Shown: positions 2 to 64,000 of the stretch, one piece after another | Layout: the number at the start of each line of letters is the position of its first letter | Position numbering within the stretch: the first letter of the stretch is position 1 | NCBI GenBank assembly: GCA_020073005.1 | Contig: JAIQFX010000027.1 | Location: 120-64,119 of the forward strand | From: Terriglobia bacterium | GTDB taxonomy: Bacteria; Acidobacteriota; Vicinamibacteria; Vicinamibacterales; CAVVIG01 | Direction of reading: 5' to 3' | Length of the DNA stretch: 64,000 nt | Notes under the pieces: generated by a model | Seen by the model: the letters and a program-made list of their open reading frames with translations, nothing else | The model's database searches: none | Told to the model about the DNA's origin: nothing | Position numbers and translations under genes: made by a program

Positions 2-247
2 TCGGTCGCCGCAATGCTGGAAGAGGCTCGCGCGGCTGAGAGCGATCGCGATTTCATTTCAAAATGCAGCATCGGACTGAAAGAAGCACGTGAAGCCCAC
101 GTCAGGCTTCGCCTTCATGAAGCCTGTCGCATCGGGCCAGCCCCGGAAGCGGTGGCGCTTCGGGAGGAAGCCAACGCTCTGGTGTCAATCATCGGGACCA
201 TCGTCCGGAATAAGCGTGCGAACATGGCCCTAATTCTTCATTCCTAA
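2..247 (+). CDS. four-helix-bundle protein (TIGR02436 / 23S rRNA intervening-sequence protein family), 5'-truncated by window edge
   Basis: Frame is open from the window edge to TAA 245-247. 'DFISKCSIGLKEAREAHVRLRL' resembles the conserved F-I-x-K-L-x-I-A-x-K-E-x-x-E helix of the family. The ORF ends inside a TAATTCY array. Confidence 0.55.
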   Translation, partial: SVAAMLEEARAAESDRDFISKCSIGLKEAREAHVRLRLHEACRIGPAPEAVALREEANALVSIIGTIVRNKRANMALILHS

Positions 248-250
248 TTC
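231..250. repeat. TAATTCY heptamer array (single arm at end of four-helix-bundle gene)
   Basis: taattcttcattcctaattc; it contains the TAA stop of the upstream ORF. Confidence 0.7.
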
Positions 251-2632: not shown

Positions 2633-4014
2633 AGGGCGGGTGGGGGAGCTGGGGCGGGTAAGGCAGGTGGGGAGACAGCCGCCTGCCACGCGTCCGCCGA
2701 GACGCGCGTGCCGGCCGCGATCACCATCCAGAACATGCCCATGATTTTGTACGAGACGAACGCGTCGACGAGCACGGCGCTGACCGACGTGGCCACCACG
2801 GCGAGCGCCGCTCCATACACGATAGCACGCGGCAGCGGCCCCGCACTGTGAGGAGTGCGGCGCGCGGCGCGGACGAGCATCCACAGCAGCGCCGCGAGAA
2901 GGACGATGAAGGTCACGAATCCGGCGACGCCCGTGTCCGCCAGCACGCGGACGTACCAGCCGTCGGGCGAGGCGGGCAGATCGTACTGGCGGACGTACGC
3001 GAGGTAGCCGCCGAGGCCGTCGCCGAGGAAGGGCCGCGCGAGCCAGTGATCGAACGCGAGCCGCCAGTTCTTCGCGCGCAGCGCCAGGCTCGGATCGGTC
3101 GCGATCGCCTGCCGGATGACGTCGGGATCGAGCGTCGTCGCGAGCGACACGACGCCGTGCACGAGCGTCAGCATCTTCTTCGACGTGATCACGTACGGCG
3201 CCGCGGCCGCGGCGACGCCCATCGTCAACAGCGTTCGCCACCGCGCGTGCCAGACGAGATCGATCGCGACGATCAGCACCAGCCCGAGCAGCGACGCGCG
3301 CGACTCGGAATTCGCCGTCACGATCGCGCCGGCCGCGAGCGCCAGCGTCGTCAACGGACCGCGGCTGCCGCCGGCGCTCCACAGCGCGTACATCAGGATC
3401 GTCGCGAGCATCATGTAGCCGCCGAAGTCGTACGAGGCCGAGAACGTCGGATAGAGCGTCGCCCACGGCGTGGGCGGTCCGGCGGCGGGCGCGTGCGTCC
3501 AGTGCTGCGCGAGCCAGATCGCGCAGATCAGCAGCAGTGCGGTGCGCGCGACCTCGACGAAGCGATTGAATTCGTCCGGCGCGAGCGCGCTATAGAAGAA
3601 GTAGTAGAGCAGGCCGTACTGGACGAGACGGCCCGCGTGAAACACGCCCGTCAGCGGCTCAGTCGACAGCGCGGCCACGCCGATCAACGTGCACGCGATC
3701 GCGACGCCCCAGTAGATCAATAGAAAGAATGTCGCGGGCGAGGGAGGCGCCGTGGCGTCCCCCGGATTCGTGGTGTCCGGCTTCAGCCGGATCCCGGGCC
3801 GGACCCTGAAGAACTTCCGCGCCCACCAGATCAGCACGAGCGCGAGCACGACATCGTCGACGCGGATCGGCGTCGTGTTGCCCGGCACGGCGGCGAGCGG
3901 CACCTTCGGCATCAGCGCGATGAACAGGACGAGAAACGCCCAGACGCGCGGCACGCGCCGGAGTTGGTAGGCCGAAACAACGACGCACGCGGCGATGATG
4001 ACGATGGGCGACAT
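2629..4014 (-). CDS. O-antigen ligase / Wzy-like polymerase family membrane protein
   Basis: About 10-12 hydrophobic helices in a polysaccharide locus. It carries an in-frame hairpin-repeat insertion ('RLKPDTTNPGDATAP'). Confidence 0.6.
   Translation of the reverse strand: MSPIVIIAACVVVSAYQLRRVPRVWAFLVLFIALMPKVPLAAVPGNTTPIRVDDVVLALVLIWWARKFFRVRPGIRLKPDTTNPGDATAPPSPATFFLLIYWGVAIACTLIGVAALSTEPLTGVFHAGRLVQYGLLYYFFYSALAPDEFNRFVEVARTALLLICAIWLAQHWTHAPAAGPPTPWATLYPTFSASYDFGGYMMLATILMYALWSAGGSRGPLTTLALAAGAIVTANSESRASLLGLVLIVAIDLVWHARWRTLLTMGVAAAAAPYVITSKKMLTLVHGVVSLATTLDPDVIRQAIATDPSLALRAKNWRLAFDHWLARPFLGDGLGGYLAYVRQYDLPASPDGWYVRVLADTGVAGFVTFIVLLAALLWMLVRAARRTPHSAGPLPRAIVYGAALAVVATSVSAVLVDAFVSYKIMGMFWMVIAAGTRVSADAWQAAVSPPALPAPAPPPAL
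3751..3805. repeat. CGTGG-GTCCGGCTTCAGCCGGAY hairpin unit inserted in-frame in the Wzy-like CDS
   Basis: cgtggcgtcccccggattcgtggtgtccggcttcagccggatcccgggccggacc. The same unit occurs at 29197, 30813-30873 and 56909. Confidence 0.75.
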
Positions 4015-4015
4015 G

Positions 4016-4118
4016 GAAATTATGAATTGGGAATTAGGAATTAAGAATGGAATCCCTGACTGTCTTCTCGCTAATTCTGAATTCTGAATTCTTAATTCTT
4101 AATTCCTAATTCCTAATT
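4016..4118. repeat. inverted pair of TAATTCY heptamer arrays
   Basis: Left arm is gaaattatgaattgggaattaggaattaagaatggaat. Right arm is ctaattctgaattctgaattcttaattcttaattcctaattcctaatt. It spans from the Wzy-like start (4014) into the last codons and TAG (4106-4108) of the Wzz-like gene. Confidence 0.8.
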
Positions 4119-9496: not shown

Positions 9497-9607
9497 AAAT
9501 TGCGGAACGCGGAATGCGGAGCGCGGAGGTCTGGCGACGGAACAGCGCGAGCAATCGAGACGTTCGACGAGTCTCAATCCGCATTCCGCAATCCTCAATC
9601 CGCAATG
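9497..9607. repeat. inverted GCGGAAT/GCGGAGY heptamer arrays with about a 42-nt spacer
   Basis: Left arm is aaattgcggaacgcggaatgcggagcgcggagg. Right arm is tctcaatccgcattccgcaatcctcaatccgcaatg. It starts 3 nt after the synthase stop. Confidence 0.8.
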
Positions 9608-9624: not shown

Positions 9625-10962
9625 ATGAGCGTGAAGGTCAAGTCATCGACCGCGAAAGGCCAGGAGCTCTACCGCCGCGCGAAGAAGCTGATCCCGGGCG
9701 GGACGCAGCTGCTGTCGAAGCGGCCGGAAATGTTCCTGCCCGATCAGTGGCCCTCGTACTACTCGAAGGCGCGCGGCGTCGAGGTCACCGACGTCGACGG
9801 CAACACGTACGTCGACATGTCGATGATGGCGATCGGCGCGTGCGTGCTCGGCTACGCCGATCCGGACGTCGACGCGGCGGCGAAGGCGGCAATCGACGCC
9901 GGGTCCGCCACGACCCTCAACGCGCCCGAGGAAGTCGAGCTCGCCGAGCTGTTGTGCGAGCTGCATCCGTGGGCGCAGATGGTCCGCTACGCGCGCTCGG
10001 GCGGCGAGGCGATGATGATGGCCGTCCGCATCGCGCGCGCACACACGCGCAAGGACAAGATCGCGTTCTCCGGCTACCACGGCTGGTGCGATTGGTACCT
10101 GGCGGCCAACCTCTCGGATGAACGCGCGCTCGACGGCCAGCTGATGCCCGGCCTCGATCCCGCCGGCGTGCCGCGCGGCCTGAAGGGCACGGCGCTGCCG
10201 TTCCACTACAACCGGCTCGATCAGCTGAAGGCGATCGTCGACGCCACGCGCGGCGAGCTCGGCGTCATTGTCATGGAGCCGCGGCGCGGCGACGCGCCGG
10301 CGCCGGGCTTCCTCGAAGCGGTGCGCGCGATCGCGACCGACATCGGTGCCGTGCTGGTCTTCGACGAAGTGACGACCGGCTTCCGCATGACCGACGGCGG
10401 CATCCACAAGCTCCTCGGCGTCAACCCGGACATCGCCGTCTTCGCGAAGGCGATGGCCAACGGCTATCCGATGGCCGCCGTCATCGGCACGTCGACCGTG
10501 ATGGAAGCCGCGCAATCCACGTTCATCAGCAGCACCAACTGGACCGAGCGCGTTGGCACGGTCGCGGCGATCGCGACGATCCGCAAGATCCGCCGCGAGC
10601 GCGTGACGGATCACCTGATCCGCATCGGCGAGCTGACGTTCGCCGGCTGGAAGGCCGCCGCCGCGAAGGCCGGCCTCGCGCTGCACACCGAAGGCCTGCC
10701 GAGCCTGACGCACTTCGGCTTCGAGCATCCGGACGAGCCCGCGCTGACGACGCTCTTCACGCAGGACATGCTGGAGCGCGGCTATCTCGCGTACAGCCAG
10801 TTCAAGCCGTCGTTCGCGCATCAGCCGTCGCACGTCGACGCGTACATGAAGGCCGTCGCATCGTCGTTCGCGATGATCGCGGACGCGATCAAGGCGGGCG
10901 ACTATGGATCGCGATTGAAAGGGCCGTCCGCAAGGCGCGGGTTTTATCGATTGACGTCGTAA
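9625..10962 (+). CDS. class III (glutamate-1-semialdehyde aminomutase-like) PLP aminotransferase
   Basis: 'SGGEAMMMAVRIARAHT', 'VFDEVTTGFR' and 'FAKAMANGYP'. ATG 9625 was chosen because upstream ORF codons are translated repeat array. Confidence 0.8.
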   Translation: MSVKVKSSTAKGQELYRRAKKLIPGGTQLLSKRPEMFLPDQWPSYYSKARGVEVTDVDGNTYVDMSMMAIGACVLGYADPDVDAAAKAAIDAGSATTLNAPEEVELAELLCELHPWAQMVRYARSGGEAMMMAVRIARAHTRKDKIAFSGYHGWCDWYLAANLSDERALDGQLMPGLDPAGVPRGLKGTALPFHYNRLDQLKAIVDATRGELGVIVMEPRRGDAPAPGFLEAVRAIATDIGAVLVFDEVTTGFRMTDGGIHKLLGVNPDIAVFAKAMANGYPMAAVIGTSTVMEAAQSTFISSTNWTERVGTVAAIATIRKIRRERVTDHLIRIGELTFAGWKAAAAKAGLALHTEGLPSLTHFGFEHPDEPALTTLFTQDMLERGYLAYSQFKPSFAHQPSHVDAYMKAVASSFAMIADAIKAGDYGSRLKGPSARRGFYRLTS

Positions 10963-11040
10963 TGAAGAATTAAGAATGAAGAATTACGAATTATGAATTC
11001 CGAACCATTCTTAATTCCCAATTCCTAATTCTTAATTTCA
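10961..11040. repeat. inverted pair of TAATTCY heptamer arrays
   Basis: aatgaagaattaagaatgaagaattacgaattatgaattc / attcttaattcccaattcctaattcttaatttcac. It includes the TAA stop 10960-10962. Confidence 0.8.
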
Positions 11041-13018: not shown

Positions 13019-13125
13019 CGGACGGACGGACGGACGGACGGACGAAGGTAACCACGGAGGACACAGAGGACACAGAGGACACGGAGGAAGAGAATCCAGC
13101 CACAGAGACACCGAGACACAGAGAG
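13019..13125. repeat. (ACGG)n, GAGGACACA and CACAGAGA tandem arrays
   Basis: cggacggacggacggacggacg; then accacggaggacacagaggacacagaggacacggaggaag; then cagccacagagacaccgagacacagagag. It starts directly after the pseG TGA. Confidence 0.8.
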
Positions 13126-13174
13126 CGGCCGACACCGTGAAACTCCGTGTGCGACTGGCCCGCGAAGCGGGCCA

Positions 13175-13256
13175 CACTGCGGAAAAAGGCCGACGCAATC
13201 ACAAACGTTGATTCAATGCAGCGTCGTTTGTGTTGCGCCGGCCTTTTTTCGCAGTG
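13175..13256. terminator. bidirectional intrinsic terminator-like long hairpin between convergent genes
   Basis: cactgcggaaaaaggccgacgcaatcacaaacg pairs with cgtttgtgttgcgccggccttttttcgcagtg (2 mismatches and 1 bulge). The A-tract/T-tract geometry gives a U-run on both strands. Confidence 0.6.
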
Positions 13257-13294
13257 CGACGGCCGGCTCCGCCGGCCGCCGGTCGCACACGCTT

Positions 13295-13319
13295 CAACTC
13301 CTCCGTGTCCTCCGTGGTT
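13295..13319. repeat. inverted partner of the GAGGACACA array
   Basis: caactcctccgtgtcctccgtggtt is the reverse complement of aaccacggaggacacggaggagttg (compare 13050-13075). Confidence 0.75.
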
Positions 13320-25204: not shown

Positions 25205-25298
25205 CTGCAGCTTTCAGCTGTCAGCACTCGGCTTTCAGCGCTCACTTCTTCCTTCTTCCTTCTTAATTCCTAATTCTTAATTCTTAATTCTCAATTCC
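25205..25298. repeat. concatenated arrays: CAGCTTTCAGCTG-type units, CTTCCTT heptamers and TAATTCY heptamers
   Basis: ctgcagctttcagctgtcagcactcggctttcagcgctcac; then ttcttccttcttccttctt; then aattcctaattcttaattcttaattctcaattcc. It abuts the thiS stop codon (TAG, 25298-25300). Confidence 0.8.
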
Positions 25299-25522
25299 TA
25301 CCCGCCGCCAACGAAGTTCACGATCTCGACCGCGTCGCCTTCACGAATCACCGTGCTCGCGAACGCATCGCGCTTGAGGACGACGAGGTTGAGCTCGACG
25401 GCCACGCGCCGCGCGTCGATCTGCAGGCTGGCCAGCAAATCGGTCACGCTCATGTTCGCTGTCGCCCCGGGGGGACCGGCGACGGCAATCTCGGTGCGGT
25501 CACCGTTCAGCGTAATCCACAC
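25298..25522 (-). CDS. thiS: sulfur carrier protein ThiS
   Basis: 74 aa ending in 'VGGG' (C-terminal Gly-Gly), upstream of thiG. GTG start. Confidence 0.8.
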   Translation of the reverse strand: MWITLNGDRTEIAVAGPPGATANMSVTDLLASLQIDARRVAVELNLVVLKRDAFASTVIREGDAVEIVNFVGGG

Positions 25523-25629
25523 GATCCAGAGGACATTCTAGCGCGACGGCGCACATTGACTCGCCTGAGAAATTCGACGTACCTTCATTCGATACTCTTA
25601 CCGCATTCATAGCAGCCGATTCCGTCCAT

Positions 25630-28600
25630 ATGCCGTCGCGTCCGACCGCTGATACCACGCCCGAGACCGCACTGGGCGTGCCGGGTTACACGTTCGCCGA
25701 TCTGCACGATCCGCCGAGGCTGGCGTCGCTCTACGAGCGCTTCTGCGAGGAAGTGGCCGCGGCCGATCCGGTTGTCTGGCGCGAGTGGGACGCGTATCGC
25801 CAGGCGCCGGATGCGCCGCGCGCGCCGCTCGCGGTGTCGAATCTGCTCACGAGCATGGCGCCGCACGTCAGCCGCTTCCTCACGCGCCTGTTTCAGGTGG
25901 AGCCGGACGCGCGCGCGATCGGCGACGCCACCCGCGCGCAGGACGATCTGTTCCGCTTCAAGGTGGACTTCGTGCGCCGCCGCGCGCTGCCGCTCGTCAA
26001 ACTAGACAAAGCAGGCGGCGCGCCCCTCACGGCAACGCCCGAAGACGATGCGATCGTCGACCAGCTGATCGCGCGATCGGCCGGCGTCGACCGCGAGCTC
26101 GCCGTCGCACGAGCAGGATGCGCGCTCCTCGATCAAGAGCGCGCCGAAGCCACCAGCCACCAGCCACCAGCCACCAGTCGCCAGGTCGATGCGCTCAAGC
26201 GCTGGTGCGCGTCGCGTCTGCACGACCGCGCGTACCGCGACTGGGTGATCTTCCGTTTTCCCGAGACGCTCGACTACTGGAAGCTCGTCGAGGTCCGGCG
26301 TCCCGAGCCGCGGCGGCCCGAGTCGATGCTCGGGCCTGATTGGCGGCGCCGCCGCCGCGATGGTTTCCTGCTCACGGACGCGCGCATGAATGCGCGCGAG
26401 ACGATGAGCGAGATCCATTACTGCGTGCTGTGCCACGAGCGCGACAAGGACTCGTGCTCGAAAGGCCTCTTCGAAAAAGATCTCACAGTTGTCGTCAACC
26501 CGCTCGGCATTCCGCTCGACGGCTGTCCCCTCGACGAGAAGATCTCCGAGATGCACACCTTGCGCAAGGCCGGCGACGCCGTCGGCGCGCTCGCGCTCGT
26601 CGTCGTCGACAACCCGATGTGTCCCGGCACCGGCCATCGCATCTGCAACGACTGCATGAAGTCGTGCATCTACCAGAAGCAGGAGCCGGTCAACATTCCG
26701 CAGATCGAAACGGGCGTGCTGACCGACGTCCTGCGGCTGCCGTGGGGCGTGGAGATCTTCGGTCTGCTCACGCGGTGGAATCCGCTCAACGTCCGCCGGC
26801 CGTACGCGCTGCCGTACAACGGCAAGAACGTCCTCGTCGTCGGCCTCGGCCCCGCGGGTTACACGCTCGCGCACTATCTGGTGAACGAAGGCTTCGGCGT
26901 CGTCGGCGTCGATGGACTCAAGATCGAGCCGCTGCCGCGCGACATCGTCGGCACCGACACCGTCGCGCCGCGGCCGATTCGCGACTGGGACGAAATCTAT
27001 CGCCGCCTCGACGAGCGCGTGCTCGAGGGATTCGGCGGCGTGTCCGAGTACGGGATCACCGTGCGATGGGACAAGAACTTCCTGACGCTGCTGCACCTGA
27101 CGCTCGCGCGGCGGCGCGGCCTGCGGATGTACGGCGGCGTCCGCTTCGGCGGCACGCTGCCCATCGAGGACGCGTGGACGTACGGCTTCGATCACGTGGC
27201 GATTGCCGCGGGCGCCGGACGGCCGACCGTCATCGACATGAAGAACAACCTGATCCGCGGGATCAGGAAGGCGAGCGATTTCCTGATGGCGCTGCAGCTG
27301 ACGGGCGCCTTCAAGCGCGACGCGCTTCCCAATCTGCAGGCGCGCCTGCCGGCGGTCGTCATCGGCGGCGGCCTCACGGCGATCGACACGGCGACCGAGC
27401 TGATGGCGTACTACCCGCTGCAGGCGGAGAAGACGCTGCGGCGGTACGAGACGCTCGTCGCCGAGATTGGCGAAGCGCGCGTGCGCGGCGCGTACGACGC
27501 CGAAGAGCTCGAGATTCTCGACGAGTCGCTCGCACACGGACGCGAGGTGCGCGCCGAGCGCGCGCGCGCCGCGACCGCCGGCGAGTCACCCGACTTCGTG
27601 CCGCTCGTGCGATCGTGGGGCGGCGTCACGATCGCGTACCGCAAGCGCATGGTCGATTCGCCGGCGTACCGGCTGAATCACGAGGAAGTGATCAAGGCGC
27701 TCGAAGAAGGCATCGTGTTCGCGGAGCTGCTGAATCCCGTTGAAGCAGTTTCGGACGCGCGGGGCGCGCTGAAAGAAGTGATCTTCAGGCGGGAAGGGCG
27801 GGAGAGGCAGGAAGGGCAGGAAGGGAACGTGACGCTCCCTGCGCGGACGCTGCTCGTGGCGGCGGGGACGACGCCCAACATCACGTGCGAGAAGGAAGCG
27901 CCGGGCCACTTCCAGCTCGACGCGAAGAAGAAATTCTTCCAGCCGCACGGCGTCACCGCGAACGGCGACGGCCGTTTCCATCTGACGCCCGATCCGAACG
28001 GCTTCTTCACGTCGTACGACGCCGACGGCCGGTTCGTCACGTACTACGGCGACAACCATCCGCGCTACGCCGGAAACGTCGTCAAGGCGATGGCCTCGGC
28101 CAAGCACGGCTTCCCGCAGGTGACGCGGCTGTTCGCGCGCGACCTCGCGTCGCTCGACGCGGGGAAGCAGGCCGATCGCGATCGCGCCTGGACGGCGCTC
28201 GTGCAGCGGCTCGACACCGATCTGCTCGCGCGCGTCGAGGACGTCGTGCGGCTGACGCCGACGATCGTCGAAGTCATCGTGAAGGCGCCGGCGGCCGCGC
28301 GCCATTTCCATCCGGGTCAGTTCTACCGGCTGCAGAACTTCGAATCGGTCGCGCGCCGCGTCGGCCCGACGCCGCTGCTGATGGAAGGCATCGCGCTCAC
28401 CGGCGCGTGGGTGGACAAGGAGCGCGGGCTGCTGTCGCTCATCGCGCTCGAGCTCGGCGTGTCGAGCCGGCTCGTCGCGTACCTGCAGAAGGGCGAGCCG
28501 GTCGTCGTCATGGGACCGACGGGCGCGCCGACGGACATCCCCGAGTGCCAGAACGTGCTGCTGCTCGGCGGCGGCCTCGGCAACGCCGTGCTCTTCTCGA

Positions 28601-29196
28601 TCGCGAAAGCGATGCGCGACCGCGGCAACAAGGTGATTTACTTCGCCGGCTACAAAAAGGGCGAAGACCTGTTCAAGCGCGAGGACATCGAGGCGGCGAC
28701 CGATCAGGTCATCTGGAGCACGGACACCGGCGCCGCGATCCCGCCCGGGCGTCCGCAGGACGCGCATTTCCGCGGCAACATCGTCCAGGCGATGATCGCG
28801 TATCAGAAGGGTGAGCTCGGCGATCGGCTCGTGCCGCTCGATTCCGTCGATCGGATCATCGCAATCGGATCAGATCGGATGATGGCGGCGGTCAAGGCGG
28901 CGCGCTACGGCGCGCTGGCGCCGTTCCTGAAGAAAGGTCACGTCGGCATCGCGAGCATCAACTCGCCGATGCAGTGCATGATGAAGGAAGTCTGCGCGCA
29001 GTGCCTGCAGAAGCACGTCGACCCCGCGACGGGGAAGGAAACGATCATCTTCTCGTGCTTCAACCAGGATCAGGAGATGGACCGCGTCGACTTCCCGAAC
29101 CTCGCGGCGCGGCTGCGGCAGAACACGGTGCAGGAGAAACTGTCGAATCTGTGGCTCGATCACTTGCTGCGTGGAGCGGCGCTGCCGCACATTTAG
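25630..29196 (+). CDS. large multidomain Fe-S flavoprotein oxidoreductase (GltD/DPD-like FAD-NAD(P) module fused to PyrK-like ferredoxin-reductase module)
   Basis: Cys clusters 'CVLCHERDKDSC' and 'CPGTGHRICNDCMKSC', dinucleotide fold 'VLVVGLGPAGYTLA', PyrK-like 'FHPGQFYRL' and 'LLGGGLGNA', and C-terminal 'CMMKEVCAQC'. 1188 aa. Confidence 0.7.
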   Translation: MPSRPTADTTPETALGVPGYTFADLHDPPRLASLYERFCEEVAAADPVVWREWDAYRQAPDAPRAPLAVSNLLTSMAPHVSRFLTRLFQVEPDARAIGDATRAQDDLFRFKVDFVRRRALPLVKLDKAGGAPLTATPEDDAIVDQLIARSAGVDRELAVARAGCALLDQERAEATSHQPPATSRQVDALKRWCASRLHDRAYRDWVIFRFPETLDYWKLVEVRRPEPRRPESMLGPDWRRRRRDGFLLTDARMNARETMSEIHYCVLCHERDKDSCSKGLFEKDLTVVVNPLGIPLDGCPLDEKISEMHTLRKAGDAVGALALVVVDNPMCPGTGHRICNDCMKSCIYQKQEPVNIPQIETGVLTDVLRLPWGVEIFGLLTRWNPLNVRRPYALPYNGKNVLVVGLGPAGYTLAHYLVNEGFGVVGVDGLKIEPLPRDIVGTDTVAPRPIRDWDEIYRRLDERVLEGFGGVSEYGITVRWDKNFLTLLHLTLARRRGLRMYGGVRFGGTLPIEDAWTYGFDHVAIAAGAGRPTVIDMKNNLIRGIRKASDFLMALQLTGAFKRDALPNLQARLPAVVIGGGLTAIDTATELMAYYPLQAEKTLRRYETLVAEIGEARVRGAYDAEELEILDESLAHGREVRAERARAATAGESPDFVPLVRSWGGVTIAYRKRMVDSPAYRLNHEEVIKALEEGIVFAELLNPVEAVSDARGALKEVIFRREGRERQEGQEGNVTLPARTLLVAAGTTPNITCEKEAPGHFQLDAKKKFFQPHGVTANGDGRFHLTPDPNGFFTSYDADGRFVTYYGDNHPRYAGNVVKAMASAKHGFPQVTRLFARDLASLDAGKQADRDRAWTALVQRLDTDLLARVEDVVRLTPTIVEVIVKAPAAARHFHPGQFYRLQNFESVARRVGPTPLLMEGIALTGAWVDKERGLLSLIALELGVSSRLVAYLQKGEPVVVMGPTGAPTDIPECQNVLLLGGGLGNAVLFSIAKAMRDRGNKVIYFAGYKKGEDLFKREDIEAATDQVIWSTDTGAAIPPGRPQDAHFRGNIVQAMIAYQKGELGDRLVPLDSVDRIIAIGSDRMMAAVKAARYGALAPFLKKGHVGIASINSPMQCMMKEVCAQCLQKHVDPATGKETIIFSCFNQDQEMDRVDFPNLAARLRQNTVQEKLSNLWLDHLLRGAALPHI
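26150..26184. repeat. CCAGCCA heptamer array in-frame in the oxidoreductase CDS
   Basis: ccaccagccaccagccaccagccaccagtcgccag, translated 'ATSHQPPATSRQ'. Confidence 0.8.
27788..27825. repeat. GGAAGGGC-type array in-frame in the oxidoreductase CDS
   Basis: ggcgggaagggcgggagaggcaggaagggcaggaaggg, translated 'REGRERQEGQEG'. Confidence 0.75.
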
Positions 29197-29492: not shown

Positions 29493-31655
<2,163 letters not shown>

Positions 31656-32628: not shown

Positions 32629-32690
32629 TTCGTGGCCTTCTGCCTTCTTCCTTCTTCCTTCTTGACTTCGCTCTCATTCTCCATCATCTT
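32629..32690. repeat. CTTCCTT / GAAGGAA heptamer array in a divergent intergenic region
   Basis: ttcgtggccttctgccttcttccttcttccttcttgacttcgc. On the minus strand it gives GAAGGAA repeats (SD-like) directly upstream of the glk ATG. Confidence 0.75.
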
Positions 32691-38712: not shown

Positions 38713-39636
38713 ATGCGGATCTTCCTGACAGGCGCCACCGGTTACATCGGTTCGGCCGTGCTCGACGCGCTCGTGCGCGGCGGCCACGATGTGACGGCCC
38801 TCGTGCGCGACAACGAGAAGGCGCGGCGCGTCGCGAAACGCGGCGCGCATCCGGTGATCGGCAATCTGGCCGAGCCCGACTCGTTTCGCGGCAGCGCCGA
38901 CGGGCAGGACGGCTACGTGCTCACCGCGTTCGACTCGACGTCGGGCCGCGGACCGGCGATCGATCGCGCGGTGCTCGAGACGATTCTCGCGGCGGCGAAG
39001 CGCCCGCGCACGGCGGGCTCCGCGGCGCCGGCGCAGCGCTTCATTATCTATACGTCCGGCGTCTGGGTGCTCGGCCGGACTCCGGATCCGGCGGCGGAAG
39101 ACGCGTCGCTGAATCCGATCGACCTCGTCTCGTGGCGTCCGGATCACGAGCAGTTCGTGGTGGACTCCGCCAACGCCGCGCTGCGGACGGTCGTCGTGCG
39201 GCCGGGCGTCGTGTACGGCAGCAGCAACGGCATCGTCGGCGACCTGTTCAAGTCAGCCAGCAACGGCCTCGTCCGGGTCGTCGGCGACGGCAACAACCAC
39301 TGGCCGCTCGTGTACGACCGCGACCTCGCCGATCTCTATGCGAAGCTCGCCGCCAGCGCCGATGCCGGCGGCGTGTTCCACGCCAATGACGAAGGCGACG
39401 AGCGCGTCAACGACATCGTCGACGCCATCAAGCCGTACCTGCCCGTGCGCCCCGACGTGCGCCACGTCCCCATCGACGAGGCGCGCAGCAAGATGGGCGC
39501 GTACGCCGACGCCCTCGCGCTGGATCAGCTGGTCCGCAGCCCGCGCGCCCGCGCGCTGGGCTGGACGCCGACGCTGAAGTCAGTCGCCGGGAACGCCGCT
39601 CGGCTGCTGGAAGAATGGCGCGCCGAGCGGAACTGA
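38713..39636 (+). CDS. NAD-dependent epimerase/dehydratase (atypical SDR) family protein
   Basis: 'MRIFLTGATGYIGS' Rossmann motif. Confidence 0.7.
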   Translation: MRIFLTGATGYIGSAVLDALVRGGHDVTALVRDNEKARRVAKRGAHPVIGNLAEPDSFRGSADGQDGYVLTAFDSTSGRGPAIDRAVLETILAAAKRPRTAGSAAPAQRFIIYTSGVWVLGRTPDPAAEDASLNPIDLVSWRPDHEQFVVDSANAALRTVVVRPGVVYGSSNGIVGDLFKSASNGLVRVVGDGNNHWPLVYDRDLADLYAKLAASADAGGVFHANDEGDERVNDIVDAIKPYLPVRPDVRHVPIDEARSKMGAYADALALDQLVRSPRARALGWTPTLKSVAGNAARLLEEWRAERN

Positions 39637-39675
39637 AAACCGAAAAGTGAAAACTGAAAAGTGAAGGAGGAAGTG
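39634..39675. repeat. GAAAAST heptamer array
   Basis: tgaaaaccgaaaagtgaaaactgaaaagtgaaggaggaagtg. It begins with TGA 39634-39636 and ends as the SD of the next ORF. Confidence 0.75.
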
Positions 39676-42623: not shown

Positions 42624-42694
42624 GGGTGGCTGGTGACTGGTGGCTGGTGACTGACGAGAAACGCTCAACGACCAATGACCAACGACTGACGACC
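42624..42694. repeat. two different heptamer arrays (GGTGRCT x4 and CAAYGAC x4) in a divergent intergenic region
   Basis: gggtggctggtgactggtggctggtgactgac and ctcaacgaccaatgaccaacgactgacgacc. They are not complementary to each other. Confidence 0.8.
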
Positions 42695-43840
42695 ATGGAT
42701 TCCTGCATCGCGCTTCTCCGCGATCTCGTCGCGATCAACTCGGTCAATCCCACGCTCGTGCCGGGCGCGCCGGGCGAGCGCGCGGTCGCCGAGTTCATCG
42801 CGGCCGACATGCGCACGCACGGTCTCGACGTTTCGATCGAGCCCGTCGTGCCGGATCGACCGAACGTCGTCGGCGTCCTCGAGGGGCGCGCGCCGGGGCG
42901 GACGCTGATGTTCTGCGGCCACACCGACACCGTCGGCGTCGCGGGCATGACCGATCCGTTCGCGCCGGTCGAACGTGACGGCCGTCTGTACGCGCGCGGC
43001 GCGCAGGACATGAAGGGCGGCGTCGCCGCGATGATGAGCGCGGCCGCGGAGATCGCGGCGCGCGGCGGCCTCGCGAAAGGCCGATTGATCGTCGCGGCCG
43101 TTGTCGATGAAGAGCACTCGAGCATCGGCGCGGACGCGCTCGTCACGAAGTGGCGCGCCGACGCGGCAATCGTGACGGAGCCGACCGACCTCGCGATCGC
43201 GGTCGGACACAAGGGTTTCGCGTGGGTGCGCGTCGATGTCGAAGGCAAGGCCGCGCACGGCAGTCGTCCGGCGGAAGGGCAGGACGCGATTCTGCGGCTC
43301 GGCCGCGTCCTCGCGCGGCTCGAGGCGCTGGACGCGACGCTGCAGGCGCAGCCGCCGCACGCGCTGATGGGCACCGGATCGCTGCACGCGTCGCTCATCG
43401 AAGGCGGACACGAGCTGAGCAGCTATCCCGATCATGCGACGCTGCAGATGGAGCGGCGGACGCTGCCCGGCGAGCCCGAATCGAAAGCGCTGGCGGAAGT
43501 GCAGCAGATTCTCGACGCGCTCGCGCGCGAGGATCCGACGTTCCGCGGCACGGCGACGGCGAGGTTCAGCCGGCCGGCGTACGAAGTCCCCGCGAATCAT
43601 GAGCTGCCGCGCGCGCTGACAGCCGCGCTGGCGCGCGCCGGAGGCCAGCCGCGCATCGCGGGCGCGAGTTTCTGGACCGACGCCGCAGTCCTCGGCCACG
43701 CCGGGATTCCCTCGATCCTCTTTGGACCGGGTGGGGCTGGACTTCACTCGACGGTCGAATACGTCAACGTGCGGGATGTGTTGACGTGTCGAGACGCGTT
43801 GATCGAGTTGGCAAAGAACTACTGCGGGTCAATTGGGTAG
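42695..43840 (+). CDS. M20 family metallopeptidase (ArgE/DapE-type deacylase)
   Basis: 'FCGHTDTV', 'ARGAQDMKGG' and 'VVDEEHSS'. Confidence 0.8.
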   Translation: MDSCIALLRDLVAINSVNPTLVPGAPGERAVAEFIAADMRTHGLDVSIEPVVPDRPNVVGVLEGRAPGRTLMFCGHTDTVGVAGMTDPFAPVERDGRLYARGAQDMKGGVAAMMSAAAEIAARGGLAKGRLIVAAVVDEEHSSIGADALVTKWRADAAIVTEPTDLAIAVGHKGFAWVRVDVEGKAAHGSRPAEGQDAILRLGRVLARLEALDATLQAQPPHALMGTGSLHASLIEGGHELSSYPDHATLQMERRTLPGEPESKALAEVQQILDALAREDPTFRGTATARFSRPAYEVPANHELPRALTAALARAGGQPRIAGASFWTDAAVLGHAGIPSILFGPGGAGLHSTVEYVNVRDVLTCRDALIELAKNYCGSIG

Positions 43841-44229
43841 TTGAGTAATTGGGTAGGTGGGTAATTGCCGTGACGTTGCCAGTATCGGATTGAACGCACT
43901 CGGATTCAGCGCGTTCGTTCGGGGACACCGTCGTTGTCGTGGAGAGACACCAGTGATGTGGCTTCCGAGTCGATCACAATAGGCGCTGATATGGATTGCC
44001 CTCGTCGGCGGGTGCGCGCTTGCTGCCGTCTCAATCAGCTACAGCGATCAAACGGCAACTGCTGAAGGCGGCAACATCAGTGTTGTGACCGAGGAGGCCG
44101 ACGAGTGTCAGTACTGGCTGAACCTCGTTGCGGATGCAAAACTGGCGACGAGTCCTGAGCGGAGCGGCGATGATTGCGGCGGGAAGCGATTACCCAATTA
44201 CCCAACCTTACTCAATTCCCCGATTCACC
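43831..44229. mobile_element. candidate palindromic element: inverted GGGTAATT arrays bracketing a decayed four-helix-bundle gene
   Basis: Arms are 43831-43867 (aattgggtagttgagtaattgggtaggtgggtaattg) and 44188-44229 (gattacccaattacccaaccttactcaattccccgattcacc). The interior looks lower in GC and has only broken ORFs. Confidence 0.45.
43983..44186 (+). pseudogene. degenerate four-helix-bundle (TIGR02436-like) gene fragment
   Basis: The frame reads '...AAVSISYSDQTATAEGGN...EEADECQYWLNLVADAKL', reminiscent of the 'AAxSIxxNIAEG' and 'KEAxETxYWLxLL' motifs. There is no plausible full-length ORF. Confidence 0.35.
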
Positions 44230-45160
44230 GTTCTCCGAAGATCCCTTTCATGACGAACGTGACGTTCGCCGGCCGCTCGCCGAGCCGCCGCATGAAGTAG
44301 GGGAACCATTCGCGGCCGAACGGGATGTAGACGCGGACGCGGTAGCCTTCCTTCACCAGCTTCGCCTGCAGATCGCGGCGGATGCCGTAGAGCATCTGGA
44401 ACTCGAACGTGTCGCGCGCGACGCCGCGCTCGCGCGCGATCTTGCACGCGAGATCGATCATCGCGGGATCGTGCGTCGCGATCGCGGGATCGTGTCCTTC
44501 GGTCAGCAGCGTCGCCAGCATGCGCGCGTACGCCGCGTCGACGTCGGCCTTGTGTTGATAGGCGATCGCCTTCGGCTCCTTGTACGCGCCCTTGACGAGC
44601 CGCACGCCCGCGCCGAGCGCGTTCAGGCGCGCCAGGTCCTGCTCGCTGCGATGGAGCGCCGACTGCAGCACGACGCCAATCCGCCGGTGGCCGTGGCGCC
44701 AGAGCGTTTCGAAAATCTCGAGCGTCACGTCGGTGTAGGGCGAGTTCTCCATGTCCACGCGGACGAAGAACCCCGCGGGCTCGCTGCGCGCCAGAATCTT
44801 CCGCAGGTTGTCGACCGTGATCGCCTTGTCCACGTCGAGGCCGAGCTGCGTGAGCTTCAGCGACAGGCCGCGGCCGATGCCGGCGGCGCCGATCGCGTCG
44901 ATGACCTCGAGGTAGTCGCGCGTGGCGGCCTCGGCCTTCGCGAGGTCCGTCACGCTCTCGCCGAGCATGTCGAGCGTGTGCGTCATGTGGCGCGCTTCGA
45001 CCGCGCGCGCCGCGTCGATGGCCTCGGCGACGCTCTCGCCCGCGATGAACCGCCGCGCGAAGCTCGACGGCCGCCGCATGCCGTACCGTGACGCCAGTTT
45101 CTTGAGGGTTCCGCTTCGGGCGAGGACGTGAAAGAACGCCTTCGACGCGCTGTCCAGCAT
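44225..45160 (-). CDS. proline dehydrogenase
   Basis: '[11 protein letters not shown]', 'HTLDMLGE', 'RLVKGAY' and 'ATHD', with PutA-like PRODH length (311 aa). Confidence 0.8.
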
Positions 45161-46265: not shown

Positions 46266-46311
46266 GCACGCACGAAGTGCGGGGACGGCCGCAGACTTCA
46301 GCCATCACACT

Positions 46312-47316
46312 TCAGACTTCAATCGCCTGACAGACCGCGTCCGCAAACTCCTGCGTGGACGCGGTGCCTCCCAGGTCCCGCGTGCGGACACGGCGCGCGC
46401 TGAGCACCGCGCGCAGCGCCTGCATGACGCGATCGGCGGCGCCGCCCTCGTCGATGTGCCGGAGCATCATCACCGCGGAGAGCAGCAGCGCGGTCGGGTT
46501 CGCGATCTGCTTGCCCGCGATGTCGGGCGCGCTGCCGTGCACGGCCTCGAAGACCGCGCACTCGGTGCCGAGATTCGCCGCGCCCACCACGCCGAGCCCG
46601 CCGACGAGTCCCGCGCAGAGATCCGACACGATGTCGCCGTACAGATTCGGCAGCAGCAGGACGTCGAACTGCGACGGGTTCATCACCAGGTGCATGCACG
46701 CCGCGTCGACGATGCGCTCGTCGTACGCGATCTCGCCGTACTCGCGCGCCACGCGCCGGATGCTCTCGAGGAACAAGCCGTCGCCGAGCTTCATGATGTT
46801 GGCTTTGTGGATCGCGGTCACTTTCTTCCGGCCGTGGCGCCGCGCGTGCTGGAACGCGAAGTGCGCGATGCGCGTCGACGCGCGCTCGGTGATGATCTTC
46901 AGGCTCTCGACGACCCCGGGCACGACCTCGTGCTCGAGGCCCGCGTAGAGATCTTCCGTGTTCTCGCGGACGATGACGAGGTCGAGCCCCTGGAACTTCG
47001 CGTCGACGCCCGGCAGGTTGCTCACGGGCCGCAGGTTCGCGTAGAGATCCAGCGCCTTGCGCAGGCCGACGTTCACGCTCGTGAAGCCCTGGCCGATCGG
47101 CGTCGTGACGGGGCCCTTCAGCGCGACCTTGTTGCGCCGGATGGAGTCGATGAGCGCGGCCGGCAGCGATTCGCCCGACCGCTCGAACGCCGTCAGGCCG
47201 GCGGCGTGCGTCTCCCAGTCGATCGCGACGCCCGCCGCGGCGATGATGCGCACGACCGCGTCGGTGACTTCCGGACCGATGCCGTCGCCGGGAACGAGCG
47301 TGATTGCGTGGGCCAT
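46312..47316 (-). CDS. isocitrate/isopropylmalate dehydrogenase family enzyme (NAD-IDH-like, 334 aa)
   Basis: 'LVPGDGIGPE', 'NLRP', 'VRENTEDLY' and 'NLYGDIVSD'. The ORF N-terminal extension was rejected. Confidence 0.85.
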   Translation of the reverse strand: MAHAITLVPGDGIGPEVTDAVVRIIAAAGVAIDWETHAAGLTAFERSGESLPAALIDSIRRNKVALKGPVTTPIGQGFTSVNVGLRKALDLYANLRPVSNLPGVDAKFQGLDLVIVRENTEDLYAGLEHEVVPGVVESLKIITERASTRIAHFAFQHARRHGRKKVTAIHKANIMKLGDGLFLESIRRVAREYGEIAYDERIVDAACMHLVMNPSQFDVLLLPNLYGDIVSDLCAGLVGGLGVVGAANLGTECAVFEAVHGSAPDIAGKQIANPTALLLSAVMMLRHIDEGGAADRVMQALRAVLSARRVRTRDLGGTASTQEFADAVCQAIEV

Positions 47317-47356: not shown

Positions 47357-48229
47357 TTGTCTGCGTTCTTGAACGCCGAACTGGAGTCGATCACCGCGGT
47401 CGTGCTGGACGCGCTCGACGTGCTCGCCCGGGCGCGCGCCGGCGGCGCGGATGCGGTTCCCGATCCCGCCGCGCTGATCTTCCTGCTCCGGCGATATCTG
47501 GCGAGCGATCGCGACGATCTGCGCGACGCGCTGGGCGAGGCGCTGGCGCCGGCCCTCGCGCGCGCCGCGGCCGAAACGCGCAGCCTCGAGTGCGCCGCCT
47601 GGCTCACGCTCTTCTCGGAAGCCAGCGCGATCTCCGACGATGACCGTCTTCCTTCAGCCGCCGCCGCGCTGATCGCCGACCTGCGGCGCGCCTGGCCGTC
47701 GACGGACGTCGTCGAACAGGGCATGGCGTCGGTCGACGCGTGCCTGCGCGCCGCGAACCTCGTCGATCCGCAGGACCTCGTGCCCGCCGCCATCGACGAG
47801 CTCGAGCGCGTCGTCGGCCATGCGTATCAGCCGGGCGACGGCATCGCCCACACGATTCATTCGCACGTGCACGCGCGCGGGAGCCTCGGCGATCACGTGC
47901 GGTCGGCGTCGGCGCTCCTCACGGCCTTCGAGATCAGCGGTCGCCTGCCCTATTCGATGCTGGCCGAGGAGTTGATGCAGACCGCTCGTCGAGATCTGCA
48001 GGGCGCGACGGACTTCATCGCGCGCTGCGAAGGCTGCCGGGTGCTGAGCCGCCTCGCCGCGCTGCACGCGGACGAGGCGTACCGCGGCGCGGCCGTCATC
48101 GCGCCGCATGTCGATTACCGGGCGGATGCCGAACGCGTAATCACGGCGCTCTCATCGGATCCGCTCGCGCGCGGATCCGGCGCCGGGGAGTACGGGCTGG
48201 CGCTGCTCGCGGCGCTGGACGCGCGATGA
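47357..48229 (+). CDS. hypothetical protein
   Basis: About 290-aa alpha-helical-looking ORF with normal composition. The start is TTG 47357 or 47369. No family was recognised. Confidence 0.45.
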   Translation: MSAFLNAELESITAVVLDALDVLARARAGGADAVPDPAALIFLLRRYLASDRDDLRDALGEALAPALARAAAETRSLECAAWLTLFSEASAISDDDRLPSAAAALIADLRRAWPSTDVVEQGMASVDACLRAANLVDPQDLVPAAIDELERVVGHAYQPGDGIAHTIHSHVHARGSLGDHVRSASALLTAFEISGRLPYSMLAEELMQTARRDLQGATDFIARCEGCRVLSRLAALHADEAYRGAAVIAPHVDYRADAERVITALSSDPLARGSGAGEYGLALLAALDAR

Positions 48230-48277
48230 GATTTCAGATTTGAGAATTCAGAATTCAGAATACAATTCCCTTCTCCC
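48227..48277. repeat. AGAWTTC heptamer array
   Basis: tgagatttcagatttgagaattcagaattcagaatacaattcccttctccc. It begins with TGA 48227-48229 and ends at the tkt ATG. Confidence 0.75.
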
Positions 48278-60938: not shown

Positions 60939-61403
60939 ATGCAGATTATCGCGAAATGCCCGGCGTGCGACGCCGGGTTGCCCGTCTCCGCCCGTGAAGC
61001 GCCGTCCGCGATCAAGTGCGGCGGCTGCGGCCGCGACATCCCGCTGACGTTCTCCGAGGATCTGAAGGCCGACCGCGCGATCGATCGCTGTCCCGTCTGC
61101 GAGGGAACCGACTTCTATATCCGCAAGGATTTCGATCCGAAGATCGGCCTCACCGTCGTCGTCATCGGCGCGATCATCAGCGGCATCTTCTACTGGTTCG
61201 GCAAGGACCTCGTCGCCTACAGCATTCTCGCCGCCGCCGCGCTGATCGATCTCGTCGTCTACGGCCGGCTGAAGGATCTCACGGTCTGCTATCGCTGCCA
61301 CAGCGAATTCCGCGGCGCGTACGAACGCAAGGCGCCCGCATTCGATCTGCATACCGCGGATGTTCTTGAACTGGAGTATGAGAGGCGGATAGGACGTCGG
61401 TGA
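60939..61403 (+). CDS. hypothetical zinc-ribbon membrane protein
   Basis: 'CPACDAG...CGGCG', 'CPVCEG' and 'CYRCHSEF', with two TM helices. Confidence 0.5.
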   Translation: MQIIAKCPACDAGLPVSAREAPSAIKCGGCGRDIPLTFSEDLKADRAIDRCPVCEGTDFYIRKDFDPKIGLTVVVIGAIISGIFYWFGKDLVAYSILAAAALIDLVVYGRLKDLTVCYRCHSEFRGAYERKAPAFDLHTADVLELEYERRIGRR

Positions 61404-61508
61404 ATTGGGTGAGTGAGTAGTTGGGTAATTGAGTAATCGCGGCGGCATTTCGCCGCGGGCGACGCAGCCATTACCCAATTACCCAACTTCCCACTTACCC
61501 AATTCACC
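61400..61508. repeat. cargo-less inverted GGGTAATT arrays: about 39-nt imperfect hairpin spanning the gap between convergent stop codons
   Basis: Left arm is gtgaattgggtgagtgagtagttgggtaattgagtaat. The right arm's reverse complement is ggtgaattgggtaagtgggaagttgggtaattgggtaat. The arms touch TGA 61401-61403 and TGA (minus strand) 61509-61511. Confidence 0.85.
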
Positions 61509-63254: not shown

Positions 63255-64000
63255 ATGACGATCGCCGGTGGCCACGAAGCCACGAAACCACGAGGAAGAA
63301 TATTTGGTACGTCTTCGCGTGTTCGTGTGTTCATGGTGGCATTTCTTGCAGCGGCAGGTGTCCTGGCGGCGCCGCGCGATCCGTTTCCGCTCGACCGCGC
63401 CGCCGAGCAGTGGGTCGCGCAGACGCTGAAGAAACTCACGCTCGACGAGAAAGTCGGCCAGCTCATCGTCCCCTCGTTCGAATCGAACTACCTCAGCACC
63501 GACAGCGACACGTTCGACGCGCTCACGCGGCTCGTCCGTGAGTACCACGTCGGCGGCTTCCACGTCTTCGGCGCGTCGATCCCCGCGCCGTCCGTCCTGC
63601 TCAACTCCGGCTACGGCACGGTCATTCTCGGCCAGCCGATGTCGGTCGCGTTTCTCGTCAACCGTCTGCAGGCGCTCTCGTCCGTGCCGCTGATGAACAC
63701 ATCGGATTTCGAGACGGGCGTCGGCTTCCGCCTCTTCGGCGCGACGAGCTTTCCGCGGCAGATGGCGATGGGCGCCATTCCAGGCGACGATGGCCTGCGG
63801 CTGGTGCGCGAGGAAGCGCGGATCACCGGAATCGAAGCGCGCGCGGTCGGCGTCCACGTGAACTTCGCGCCGATCGCCGACGTGAACAACAATCCGCGCA
63901 ACCCGGTCATCAACACGCGGTCGTACGGCGAGGATCCTGCGCGCGTCTCGGCGCTCGTGAGCGCGTACGTCGCGGGCGCGCGCGACGGCGGGATGATCGC
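63255..64000 (+). CDS. glycoside hydrolase family 3 (beta-N-acetylhexosaminidase/beta-glucosidase-like), 3'-truncated by window edge
   Basis: Not in the ORF track because there is no stop in the window. 'LDEKVGQLIV', 'HVNFAPIADV' and 'RSYGEDP' are GH3 N-terminal domain motifs. The alternative start is ATG 63333. Confidence 0.75.
   Translation, partial: MTIAGGHEATKPRGRIFGTSSRVRVFMVAFLAAAGVLAAPRDPFPLDRAAEQWVAQTLKKLTLDEKVGQLIVPSFESNYLSTDSDTFDALTRLVREYHVGGFHVFGASIPAPSVLLNSGYGTVILGQPMSVAFLVNRLQALSSVPLMNTSDFETGVGFRLFGATSFPRQMAMGAIPGDDGLRLVREEARITGIEARAVGVHVNFAPIADVNNNPRNPVINTRSYGEDPARVSALVSAYVAGARDGGMI
63267..63300. repeat. CCACGAAR octamer-like array at the 5' end of the GH3 gene
   Basis: ggtggccacgaagccacgaaaccacgaggaagaa. 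Confidence 0.6.

Follow-up and report, generated by a model that had tools for sequence, protein, structure and literature searches.

A decayed four-helix-bundle gene between inverted repeat arrays: a probable IVS-like stem-loop element in an intergenic spacer of Vicinamibacterales

Background

The 23S rRNA genes of Coxiella burnetii, Leptospira, Brucella, and Xanthomonas carry intervening sequences (IVS) that contain an S23p open reading frame (ORF) (PMC4990558). The Coxiella IVS is 428 nt long and combines a 28-bp terminal inverted repeat, which forms a stem, with an S23p ORF that is undergoing reductive evolution and, beside this ORF, tandem heptamers in variable number; it is cut out of the transcript by RNase III (PMC4990558). 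The present analysis concerns an interval of related design at positions 43831-44229 of a 64-kb stretch of DNA (64,000 nt, here called the window). There, two inverted arrays of short tandem repeats enclose the remains of a gene for a four-helix-bundle (4HB) protein, between a gene for an M20/M28-type peptidase (M20) and a gene for proline dehydrogenase (Pro_dh). The window is about 70% G+C, and its closest protein matches come from metagenome-assembled Acidobacteriota of the order Vicinamibacterales.

Intergenic heptamer arrays form a second group of described sequences: the short tandemly repeated repetitive (STRR) sequences of cyanobacteria, reported in 1990, and, both from 2015, the TAACTGA repeats of Beggiatoaceae (PMC4679880) and the GGGAATC repeats of Xanthomonas, which include 70-75 convergent inverted pairs (PMC4692102). 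Term searches of the two 2015 papers returned no mention of S23 or helix-bundle genes.

The interval is best explained, with a probability of about three in four, as a degenerate copy of a selfish, IVS-like stem-loop element that resides in an intergenic spacer. Its membership, as a decayed copy, in a family of array-flanked 4HB elements is very likely.

Two inverted arrays over two stop codons

The arm next to M20 comprises 4.4 copies of an 8-nt unit at 43831-43867 (AATTGGGT/AGTTGAGT/AGGTGGGT; overall GGGTAATT-type), and its inverted counterpart at 44189-44225 is built of ATTACCCA units. When 43826-43870 was locally aligned with 44185-44232 in reverse complement, the score was 42; the 44 columns include one 2-nt gap, and 35 of the 42 aligned bases agree. 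None of 2000 shuffles reached this score (maximum, 27). Elsewhere in the window, comparable scores came only from the arms of a hairpin near 61400 (42 and 39), and all others were 20 or less. Both arms include the stop codon of the adjacent gene: TAG at 43838-43840 for M20, and 44225-44227 on the minus strand for Pro_dh. The GC fraction of the interval is 0.53-0.60, compared with 0.68-0.74 in the flanking genes. An initial annotation, made from sequence alone, had described inverted arrays at 43831-43867 and 44188-44229 that overlap both convergent stops and bracket a low-GC interior; alignment, shuffles, base composition, and ORF ends all bear this out.

In the predicted RNA fold of the window copy, the arms pair with each other in both the minimum-free-energy and the centroid structures (z = -5.0); the fold of an intact copy from a relative, described below, has z = -5.4. 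Scans of 43600-44400 found neither a sigma-70 promoter nor an intrinsic terminator, and an Rfam scan of the whole window returned no family match.

The decayed 4HB gene

The initial annotation had read a trace of a 4HB gene in the interior. By profile hidden Markov model (HMM) this trace is weak: against TIGR02436, the raw frame scores 12.2 bits (E = 0.16) and a hand-joined translation of two frames scores 21.7 bits (E = 1.8e-4; cut-off, 24), while against PF05635 the remnant scores 17.2 bits (cut-off, 33.8). Against the intact gene at the orthologous site of a relative (contig L009), it is strong: one piece is identical at 12 of 12 residues, and the other, in a different frame, is 70% identical with E = 9e-14 (Table 1). 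Compared with that gene, the window copy has lost residues 60-76, with a frameshift, and residues 107-139, and its N-terminal ~47 codons are unrecognizable. Being below the curated cut-offs of both families, the remnant is no longer a member protein and is a pseudogene. Its homology to the intact orthologous-site gene indicates that the interior descends from a member of the TIGR02436/PF05635 family.

The 4HB alignment contains six invariant residues: S48, N52, E55, G56, S75, and E78. The family profile matches the PDB pentamers 2GSC and 2RLD, each of which lists five chains.

Gain, decay, and loss at one site

Relatives were identified as contigs encoding close homologues of the window Pro_dh gene. 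In L009 (GCA_016195265.1; Pro_dh 91% identical), an intact gene encoding a 139-aa 4HB protein lies between Pro_dh and M20, within the same GGGTAATT arms; its product scores 78.3 bits against TIGR02436 (cut-off, 24). In L010 (Pro_dh 90% identical), the same arms enclose a 455-bp interior that retains residues 84-94 and 118-129. The window copy retains residues 48-59 and 77-106; the two copies therefore decayed independently. In L012 (also 90% identical), only 39 bp separate the two stop codons. The M20 protein of L012 ends in ..YCGSMA* and that of the window in ..YCGSIG*, its last codons being the first arm unit; in L009 and in an outgroup inspected (L030), M20 ends at ..YC* or ..FC*. L012 is an empty allele with a scar, having kept the element-encoded C-terminal extension of M20.

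A neighbour-joining tree from the four flanking genes (4.2 kb) has the topology (L009,(window,(L010,L012))), with bootstrap support of 199-200 of 200. Occupied alleles surround the empty one of L012 in this tree, so that a single gain and a later single loss make the economical history. At larger distances, in approximately 50 relatives whose Pro_dh is 62-79% identical and in most Vicinamibacterales, Pro_dh and M20 are separated by another interval, 450-700 bp long. This interval was translated for eight outgroups, in which it codes for a conserved protein of ~100 aa (MVTNYP...CGLHGHDTLLHFE...RCVSCGHETPGW; also MVTNYP...CGLHGHDTLLHFE.DRMSLRCVSCGHETPGWEL...RRIA) and contains no arrays. Thus, the presence/absence polymorphism proposed in the initial annotation exists among relatives of the window. 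The element was gained in the ancestor of a small clade, inherited, decayed twice, and lost once. The outgroup ORF (L014-L088, e.g. L017:10934-11528) is apparently that of a zinc-ribbon protein, lost in the window's clade.

Solo hairpins and gene-bearing copies in the clade

The hairpin near 61400 lies between the convergent genes ORF154 (a 154-aa ORF) and MoeA. It folds with -73.4 kcal/mol (z = -12.7), and its arms are of the same flavour as those of the 43831-44229 interval. Immediately interior to one arm is a unique subterminal segment, CGCAGCCATTACCC, that also borders the interior of the L010 copy. Arms and segment being shared, the hairpin is an interior-deleted copy rather than an unrelated structure; arm scores, fold energy, and CGCAGCCATTACCC together uphold the earlier view of 61400-61508 as a residual hairpin.

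The MoeA-ORF154 spacer was compared among five loci (window 61399-61508, L183:3710-3766, L184, L185, and L186). It holds a shorter GGGTAATT hairpin in the L009 genome; it is empty (1-4 bp) in two relatives, one from the same metagenome as L012; and in another (L185:3713-3786) it holds a hairpin of a different flavour, GCGGAGT heptamers. This convergent junction has been colonised more than once and also cleared. The predicted life cycle, from cargo through decay to residual hairpin and loss, is accordingly documented at two loci.

Two details of this spacer deserve record. In L185 the MoeA stop codon is a TAA at the hairpin edge and the TGA of the empty alleles stands on the far side of the hairpin, which looks like insertion just before the MoeA stop. 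Further, L012:6934-6972 and L184:3709-3711, both from JGI sample 3300085377, represent a population without either of the GGGTAATT-family copies of its relatives. Two clean losses in this lineage hint at removal of the whole family, not at random deletion; alternatively, the two contigs may come from different genomes.

In 1.51 Mb of Vicinamibacterales loci, a scan detected 293 arrays and, in inverted arrangement, 82 pairs. The loop measures 300-600 bp in seven of the pairs, and six of these loops hold a 4HB gene or pseudogene. The gene-bearing pairs include, beside the window copy and L009, those of L049 (AAGTTAAAA arms), L067 (GCCAGTN arms around an intact classical 4HB gene), and L091 (GGTTCGTS arms around a frameshifted 4HB gene). 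The seventh holds a cupin gene (L078), which lies between two separate hairpins. L078 also has an intact 4HB gene of the L091 subfamily within the same GGTTCGTS arms, but at a different locus and in a different genome. Array pairs led to the classical-type genes of L067 and L091, and a phmmer search with L067 to that of L078; an HMM of four clade proteins missed them. Altogether, both flanks are visible for seven 4HB genes or pseudogenes, and inverted arrays, of four flavours, bound all seven. An eighth (L054) has a downstream array, its upstream side being cut off. Four of five clade copies lie between convergent stop codons. The L067 element has an empty counterpart in the relative L075, an 11-bp spacer between the same two convergent stops; for the elements of L078, L049, and L003, no orthologous empty site was present among the loci compared.

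The L003 element is the one at the very start of the window, where its gene is truncated. The gene is complete in contig L003 (131 aa; 52 bits against TIGR02436), and its upstream arm of AAGAATT units falls outside the window, at ~L003:11405-11445. An intact family member ending in an array near 231-250 had been proposed; the gene, at 2-247, does end inside the array at 229-250, but the flavour is CCTAATT/AAGAATT and not GGGTAATT. As side observations, the intact 4HB ORF of L078 (L078:3950-4451, minus strand) reads through its downstream arm, acquiring a repetitive tail (..EPNELNEPDELHEPDKPNEPNEPNELAEFNEP..), and the gene at the window start likewise ends within its arm (..ALILHS*).

These data bear on the main rival explanation, in which the hairpins are primary: autonomous intergenic repeats, REP- or MITE-like (see below) or made by the host, into whose loops a 4HB cassette lands or is swapped by recombination between same-flavour arms. 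The window interval would then be a hairpin that once received a cassette. Solo hairpins are indeed about seven times commoner than gene-bearing copies; the MoeA-ORF154 spacer has two flavours in different relatives and the gene in neither; the cupin gene of L078 sits between separate hairpins; the inverted GGGAATC pairs of Xanthomonas are described without mention of a gene (PMC4692102); and flavour-dependent recombination would also produce the covariation of arms and protein described below. Yet the empty site of the L067 element is 11 bp without a hairpin, the unique subterminal segment kept at 61399-61508 marks a deletion product and not a precursor, the orthologous series runs from intact gene through decay to loss, and 4HB is nearly the sole cargo ever found in such loops. 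The rival is unlikely.

In a purely vertical account, what decayed on the spot was an ordinary chromosomal 4HB gene, and local replication slippage produced the arrays. This is barely credible: the outgroups have a different gene at the site, the same arms and subterminal sequence recur 17 kb away, the same subfamily occurs with the same arms at different loci (L078 and L091), and the association holds across phyla. In its favour are the occupation of the same site in three of four close relatives and the abundance of heptamer arrays throughout the genome.

The same design in other phyla

A tblastn search of a plasmid collection gave 22 records, ten of which were retrieved and examined. All ten 4HB genes have inverted heptamer arrays on both sides, with E values from 1e-3 to 1e-12 (search space, 270 x 290 nt). 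Their hosts represent four phyla: seven Cyanobacteriota (Calothrix, Pseudanabaena, Geminocystis, Anabaena, Nostoc, Picosynechococcus, and Stanieria) together with Azospirillum, Gemmatirosa, and Riemerella. The copy of Azospirillum lipoferum (L098), with GGACAGA/GGACGGA heptamer arms, lies inside a large-subunit rRNA gene (RF02541, 1361 bits) and is a true intervening sequence of 23S rRNA. On the cyanobacterial plasmids L094 (Pseudanabaena), L096 (Anabaena sp. 90), and L099 (Picosynechococcus), the array-flanked 4HB genes are located within CRISPR-cas operons, where they separate cas6 from cas4 or cas10 from cmr3 and are co-directional with the cas genes.

Metagenomes were scanned with a seven-sequence 4HB alignment (a 12-sequence alignment was too diverse), which gave 80 loci at 35-65% identity, 69 of them with both flanks. 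A locus was scored as having arms when its upstream 250 nt matched its downstream 250 nt in inverted orientation with at least 24 bits. By this measure, arms flank 47 of the 69 loci, compared with 4 of 150 mismatched flank pairs and 1 of 101 windows displaced by 900 bp. At 36 loci the arms have a period of 7 nt, at ten of 8 nt, and at one of 6 nt; the median span is 462 bp. Arms match between loci in 1% of pairs whose proteins are less than 45% identical, in 16% at 55-70%, and in 50% at 70% or more. Arms and protein diverge together, and therefore appear to be inherited as one unit.

The same design surrounds the 4HB family in at least five phyla, including one 23S rRNA gene. The initial annotation's expectation that other 4HB genes would be array-flanked holds for all those found in the clade with both flanks visible and for most in other phyla.

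This breadth also bears on a simpler alternative, in which the arms are only a bidirectional terminator or an mRNA-stabilising stem for two convergent genes, with a dead gene between them by chance and no element at all. The stems are strong, and the interval falls exactly between convergent stops, as do four of five clade copies. On the other side, there is no U-tract or terminator-like site in the interval; the same design occurs within operons between co-directional genes (cas6-cas4, cas10-cmr3) and in 23S rRNA; and the tie to a single protein family across phyla would be left without explanation. Such an origin is highly improbable.

How such an element might persist

In the proposed explanation, the element is a small TIGR02436/PF05635 4HB gene, whose product has an S23p/Avd-like fold that is pentameric in solved relatives, set between inverted arrays of 7-9-nt units. 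The unit is compact: arm, up to ~50 nt, an ORF of ~350 nt, up to ~70 nt, arm; in intact copies the 4HB gene is the only ORF. One copy entered the Pro_dh-M20 spacer in an ancestor of this Vicinamibacterales lineage and is still intact in L009. Because the window copy is without promoter and terminator of its own, and because elements are mostly co-directional with the upstream gene (11 of the 14 copies with known neighbours), read-through transcription is probable. In the read-through transcript, the arms would pair to form a stem of ~40 bp (up to ~100 bp in other copies). RNase III would then cut this stem, by analogy with the rRNA IVS, separating the insert from the neighbouring messages and making insertion nearly harmless; this step is plausible, if somewhat short of probable.

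The conservation of the 4HB protein across phyla as the only cargo suggests that it serves the element. It may be kept because it helps the element to persist or spread, perhaps by binding its own arrays, a tentative idea that is less likely than not. Candidate sources of new copies are a trans-acting enzyme, recombination between same-flavour arms, and reverse transcription. From the existence of several copies, together with gain and loss, we infer active transposition.

The last of these sources leads to a further alternative, a retroelement, in which arrays would be made by telomerase-like slippage synthesis through a reverse transcriptase encoded elsewhere, with an Avd-like 4HB protein as cofactor and an RNA intermediate. 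The 4HB family is reported to include Avd, a reverse-transcriptase cofactor; the arms are short tandem units in variable number; and the element looks dependent on read-through transcription. Against this, no reverse transcriptase lies near any examined copy, no poly-A or other mark of retro-insertion is present, and the two arms mirror each other in their unit variants, a pattern more in keeping with inverted duplication than with two independent syntheses. A retroelement is thus a distinctly unlikely origin.

Several observations weigh against the preferred explanation, a selfish IVS-like element. According to Pfam lists of the neighbouring genes, the element neither contains nor adjoins a gene for a transposase, recombinase, or reverse transcriptase. 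No recent insertion has been caught, every close relative with the element having inherited it. At both sites where occupied and empty alleles can be compared (window and L012; L067 and L075), no target-site duplication is visible, a comparison of little power, each empty allele being either a secondary scar or 25% diverged. In the clade scan there are ~50 solo hairpins to 7 gene-bearing copies, and the hairpins may be the primary entity. About a third of the metagenomic 4HB loci are without clear arms at the threshold used, and genome background partly confounds the joint divergence of arms and protein. Finally, mismatches between arms include 32 that are G:U-compatible on the sense strand, 29 on the antisense strand, and 63 transversions; there is no G:U bias on the sense RNA, and therefore no sign of strand-specific selection for an RNA stem. 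Arm complementarity may instead be a by-product of how arms are made, or may act in DNA.

A different function for the arms, as translational insulators whose stop codons end any incoming frame, was considered and rejected: on average 1.05 inward frames contain stops, fewer than the 1.53 outward frames (shuffles, 0.84).

Other arrays in the window and related loci

The intergenic DNA of the window is full of tandem arrays of 7-8-nt units, of at least eight flavours (AATTAGG, GGTGACT, GACTCCC, CCTTCTT, AACTGAA, CAGACTT, CAATCCG, GGACACAGA, and others). They occur at 229-250, 4014-4118, 9575-9606, 10961-11037, 13053-13124, 13913-13986, 25245-25297, 31331-31362, 32636-32663, 39631-39665, 42625-42695, 46292-46321, 48229-48261, and 63271-63332, and many adjoin start or stop codons. 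In 1.5 Mb of related loci, period 7 (237 arrays) exceeds period 9 (130) and period 8 (88). The principal features of the window are collected in Table 1.

Some arrays have distinctive surroundings. At 13017-13316, (GACG)7 is followed by a GGACACAGA-type array, whose inverted partner (CCTCCGTG units, 13299-13316) lies ~175 bp away; the cargo between them is not a 4HB gene. It is a long, imperfect palindrome that contains A- and T-tracts (AAAAAGGCCGACGC...GCGCCGGCCTTTTTT) and resembles a bidirectional terminator placed between convergent genes. A similar array-flanked palindrome is found at L017:13550-13850. The AACTGAA/AAAGTGA heptamer array at 39631-39665 fills the space between one gene's stop codon and the GGAGG ribosome-binding site that precedes the next gene; the TAACTGA repeats described upstream of start codons in Beggiatoaceae (PMC4679880) are of the same heptamer family. 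At 26148-26177, a perfect (AGCCACC)x4.3 array lies inside an open frame of 1227 codons (25516-29196); either the array precedes the true gene start, or coding sequence tolerates a period-7 repeat. At L037:12600-13012 and L040:11700-12021, arrays of 300-400 bp are built of GGTCCTT/GGTCCGTCC-type units with a short inverted partner at one end, and the entire "loop" is made of repeat units.

Table 1. Positions of the interval, its parts, the adjoining genes, and other 4HB-related features in the window
Feature	Position	Strand	Remarks
4HB gene of second subfamily (2-247)	2..250	+	C-terminal 81 codons of intact 131-aa gene; downstream arm of CCTAATT units, 229-250, encodes last residues
Solo hairpin, AATTAGG/AAGAATT flavour	4014..4118	.	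same flavour as arms of window-start 4HB gene
Solo hairpin, AAGAATT flavour	10961..11037	.	loop of ~7 nt
M20/M28-type peptidase gene	42695..43840	+	co-directional with 4HB remnant; last residues ..GSIG* encoded by arm A
Arm A	43831..43867	+	8-nt unit array, AATTGGGT AGTTGAGT AATTGGGT AGGTGGGT AATTG; upstream of 4HB remnant; contains M20 stop
Interior	43868..44187	+	low-GC pseudogene of TIGR02436 4HB protein
Remnant of 4HB residues 48-59	44047..44082	+	IKRQLLKAATSV; identical to intact L009 orthologue
Remnant of 4HB residues 77-106	44070..44159	+	..VVTEEADECQYWLNLVADAKLATSPE; different frame from residues 48-59
Arm B	44188..44229	+	inverted copy of arm A (ATTACCCA units); contains Pro_dh stop (TCA on + strand)
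Proline dehydrogenase gene (Pro_dh)	44225..45160	-	convergent with M20 gene
Solo hairpin, GGGTAATT family	61399..61508	.	arms ~61399-61438 and 61469-61508; between convergent ORF154 and MoeA

Significance

These results join two puzzles: the nature and spread of ORF-bearing 23S rRNA IVS, open since about 1990, and the abundance of intergenic 7-nt arrays. If arms and 4HB gene form one unit, a concrete context is given to a very common "hypothetical" family (annotated as four helix bundle protein or S23 ribosomal protein), and thousands of intergenic hairpins could become readable as its relics. Elements inside operons, including the CRISPR-cas operons of cyanobacterial plasmids, may affect the processing of polycistronic messages. 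For annotation, the C-termini of neighbouring genes can be arm-encoded, as in M20, and pseudogenes such as the window remnant escape notice.

A wider proposal is speculative, and on present evidence doubtful: array-flanked 4HB elements could be a widespread, unrecognised class, taking in, as special or degenerate members, the 23S rRNA IVS and many intergenic heptamer arrays and hairpins (STRR, GGGAATC pairs). In such a class, arrays would be recognised by the 4HB pentamer of the same flavour, which would promote their copying or retention with no conventional transposase involved.

In the open literature (most subscription journals lie outside it), no statement was found that inverted heptamer arrays are the general setting of 4HB genes, or that the IVS exemplifies such a setting. 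Searches there on 4HB/S23p genes with heptamer arrays, and on intergenic heptanucleotide repeats and hairpins of Acidobacteria, returned only the account of the Coxiella IVS.

Comparison with known systems

MITEs (inverted-repeat transposable elements of miniature size) and the bacterial repeats known as REP and BIME are, like the solo hairpins at 61399-61508, 4014-4118, and 10961-11037, short, multi-copy, palindromic, non-coding, and intergenic. The differences are that no matching transposase or RAYT gene is found among the neighbouring genes here and no target-site duplication is seen; that the arms are tandem arrays rather than a unique terminal inverted repeat; and that the full-length form carries a 4HB gene, not a transposase gene. 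With no cognate transposase among the genes in or near the element, the window copy is not a MITE or insertion sequence in the usual sense.

Avd, a protein of diversity-generating retroelements, is a pentameric four-helix bundle reported in PF05635, and the likeness to those retroelements lies in this shared protein family. They differ from the window locus, where no RVT domain occurs among genes within 10 kb and no template/variable repeat pair lies nearby; a search of a phage collection with a classical 4HB query gave no match. Foldback transposons are eukaryotic and far larger. They have long inverted arms of short tandem subrepeats, sometimes with a coding loop that encodes a transposase and often as arms only. 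The likeness, inverted arms of short tandem subrepeats, implies no homology.

The STRR, TAACTGA, and GGGAATC arrays are closer: they too are intergenic, consist of 7-nt tandem units of many flavours in variable copy number, and often form inverted pairs. The window likewise holds tandem intergenic units of several flavours; the arms of this copy have an 8-nt period. Whereas those arrays are treated as regulatory or structural repeats, the arrays here are the arms of a gene-carrying unit.

The closest relative is the 23S rRNA IVS with its S23p ORF (PMC4990558), a described counterpart to set beside the initial annotation, which was not aware of any described mobile element of this organisation. 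The shared features are an insert of 400-750 bp, a terminal inverted-repeat stem around a PF05635 ORF, decay of that ORF, the absence of a transposase, a sporadic distribution, and suspected horizontal transfer. The window copy has both the terminal inverted-repeat stem and the degenerating S23p ORF. It differs in location, for this and nearly all other copies have protein-coding genes on both sides instead of a place in rRNA helix 25 or 45, and in its arms, which are whole arrays of 7-9-nt units, 25-100 nt long. The finding, which may have been described before, is best read as an IVS-type stem-loop element that resides in intergenic spacers and has tandem arrays for arms.

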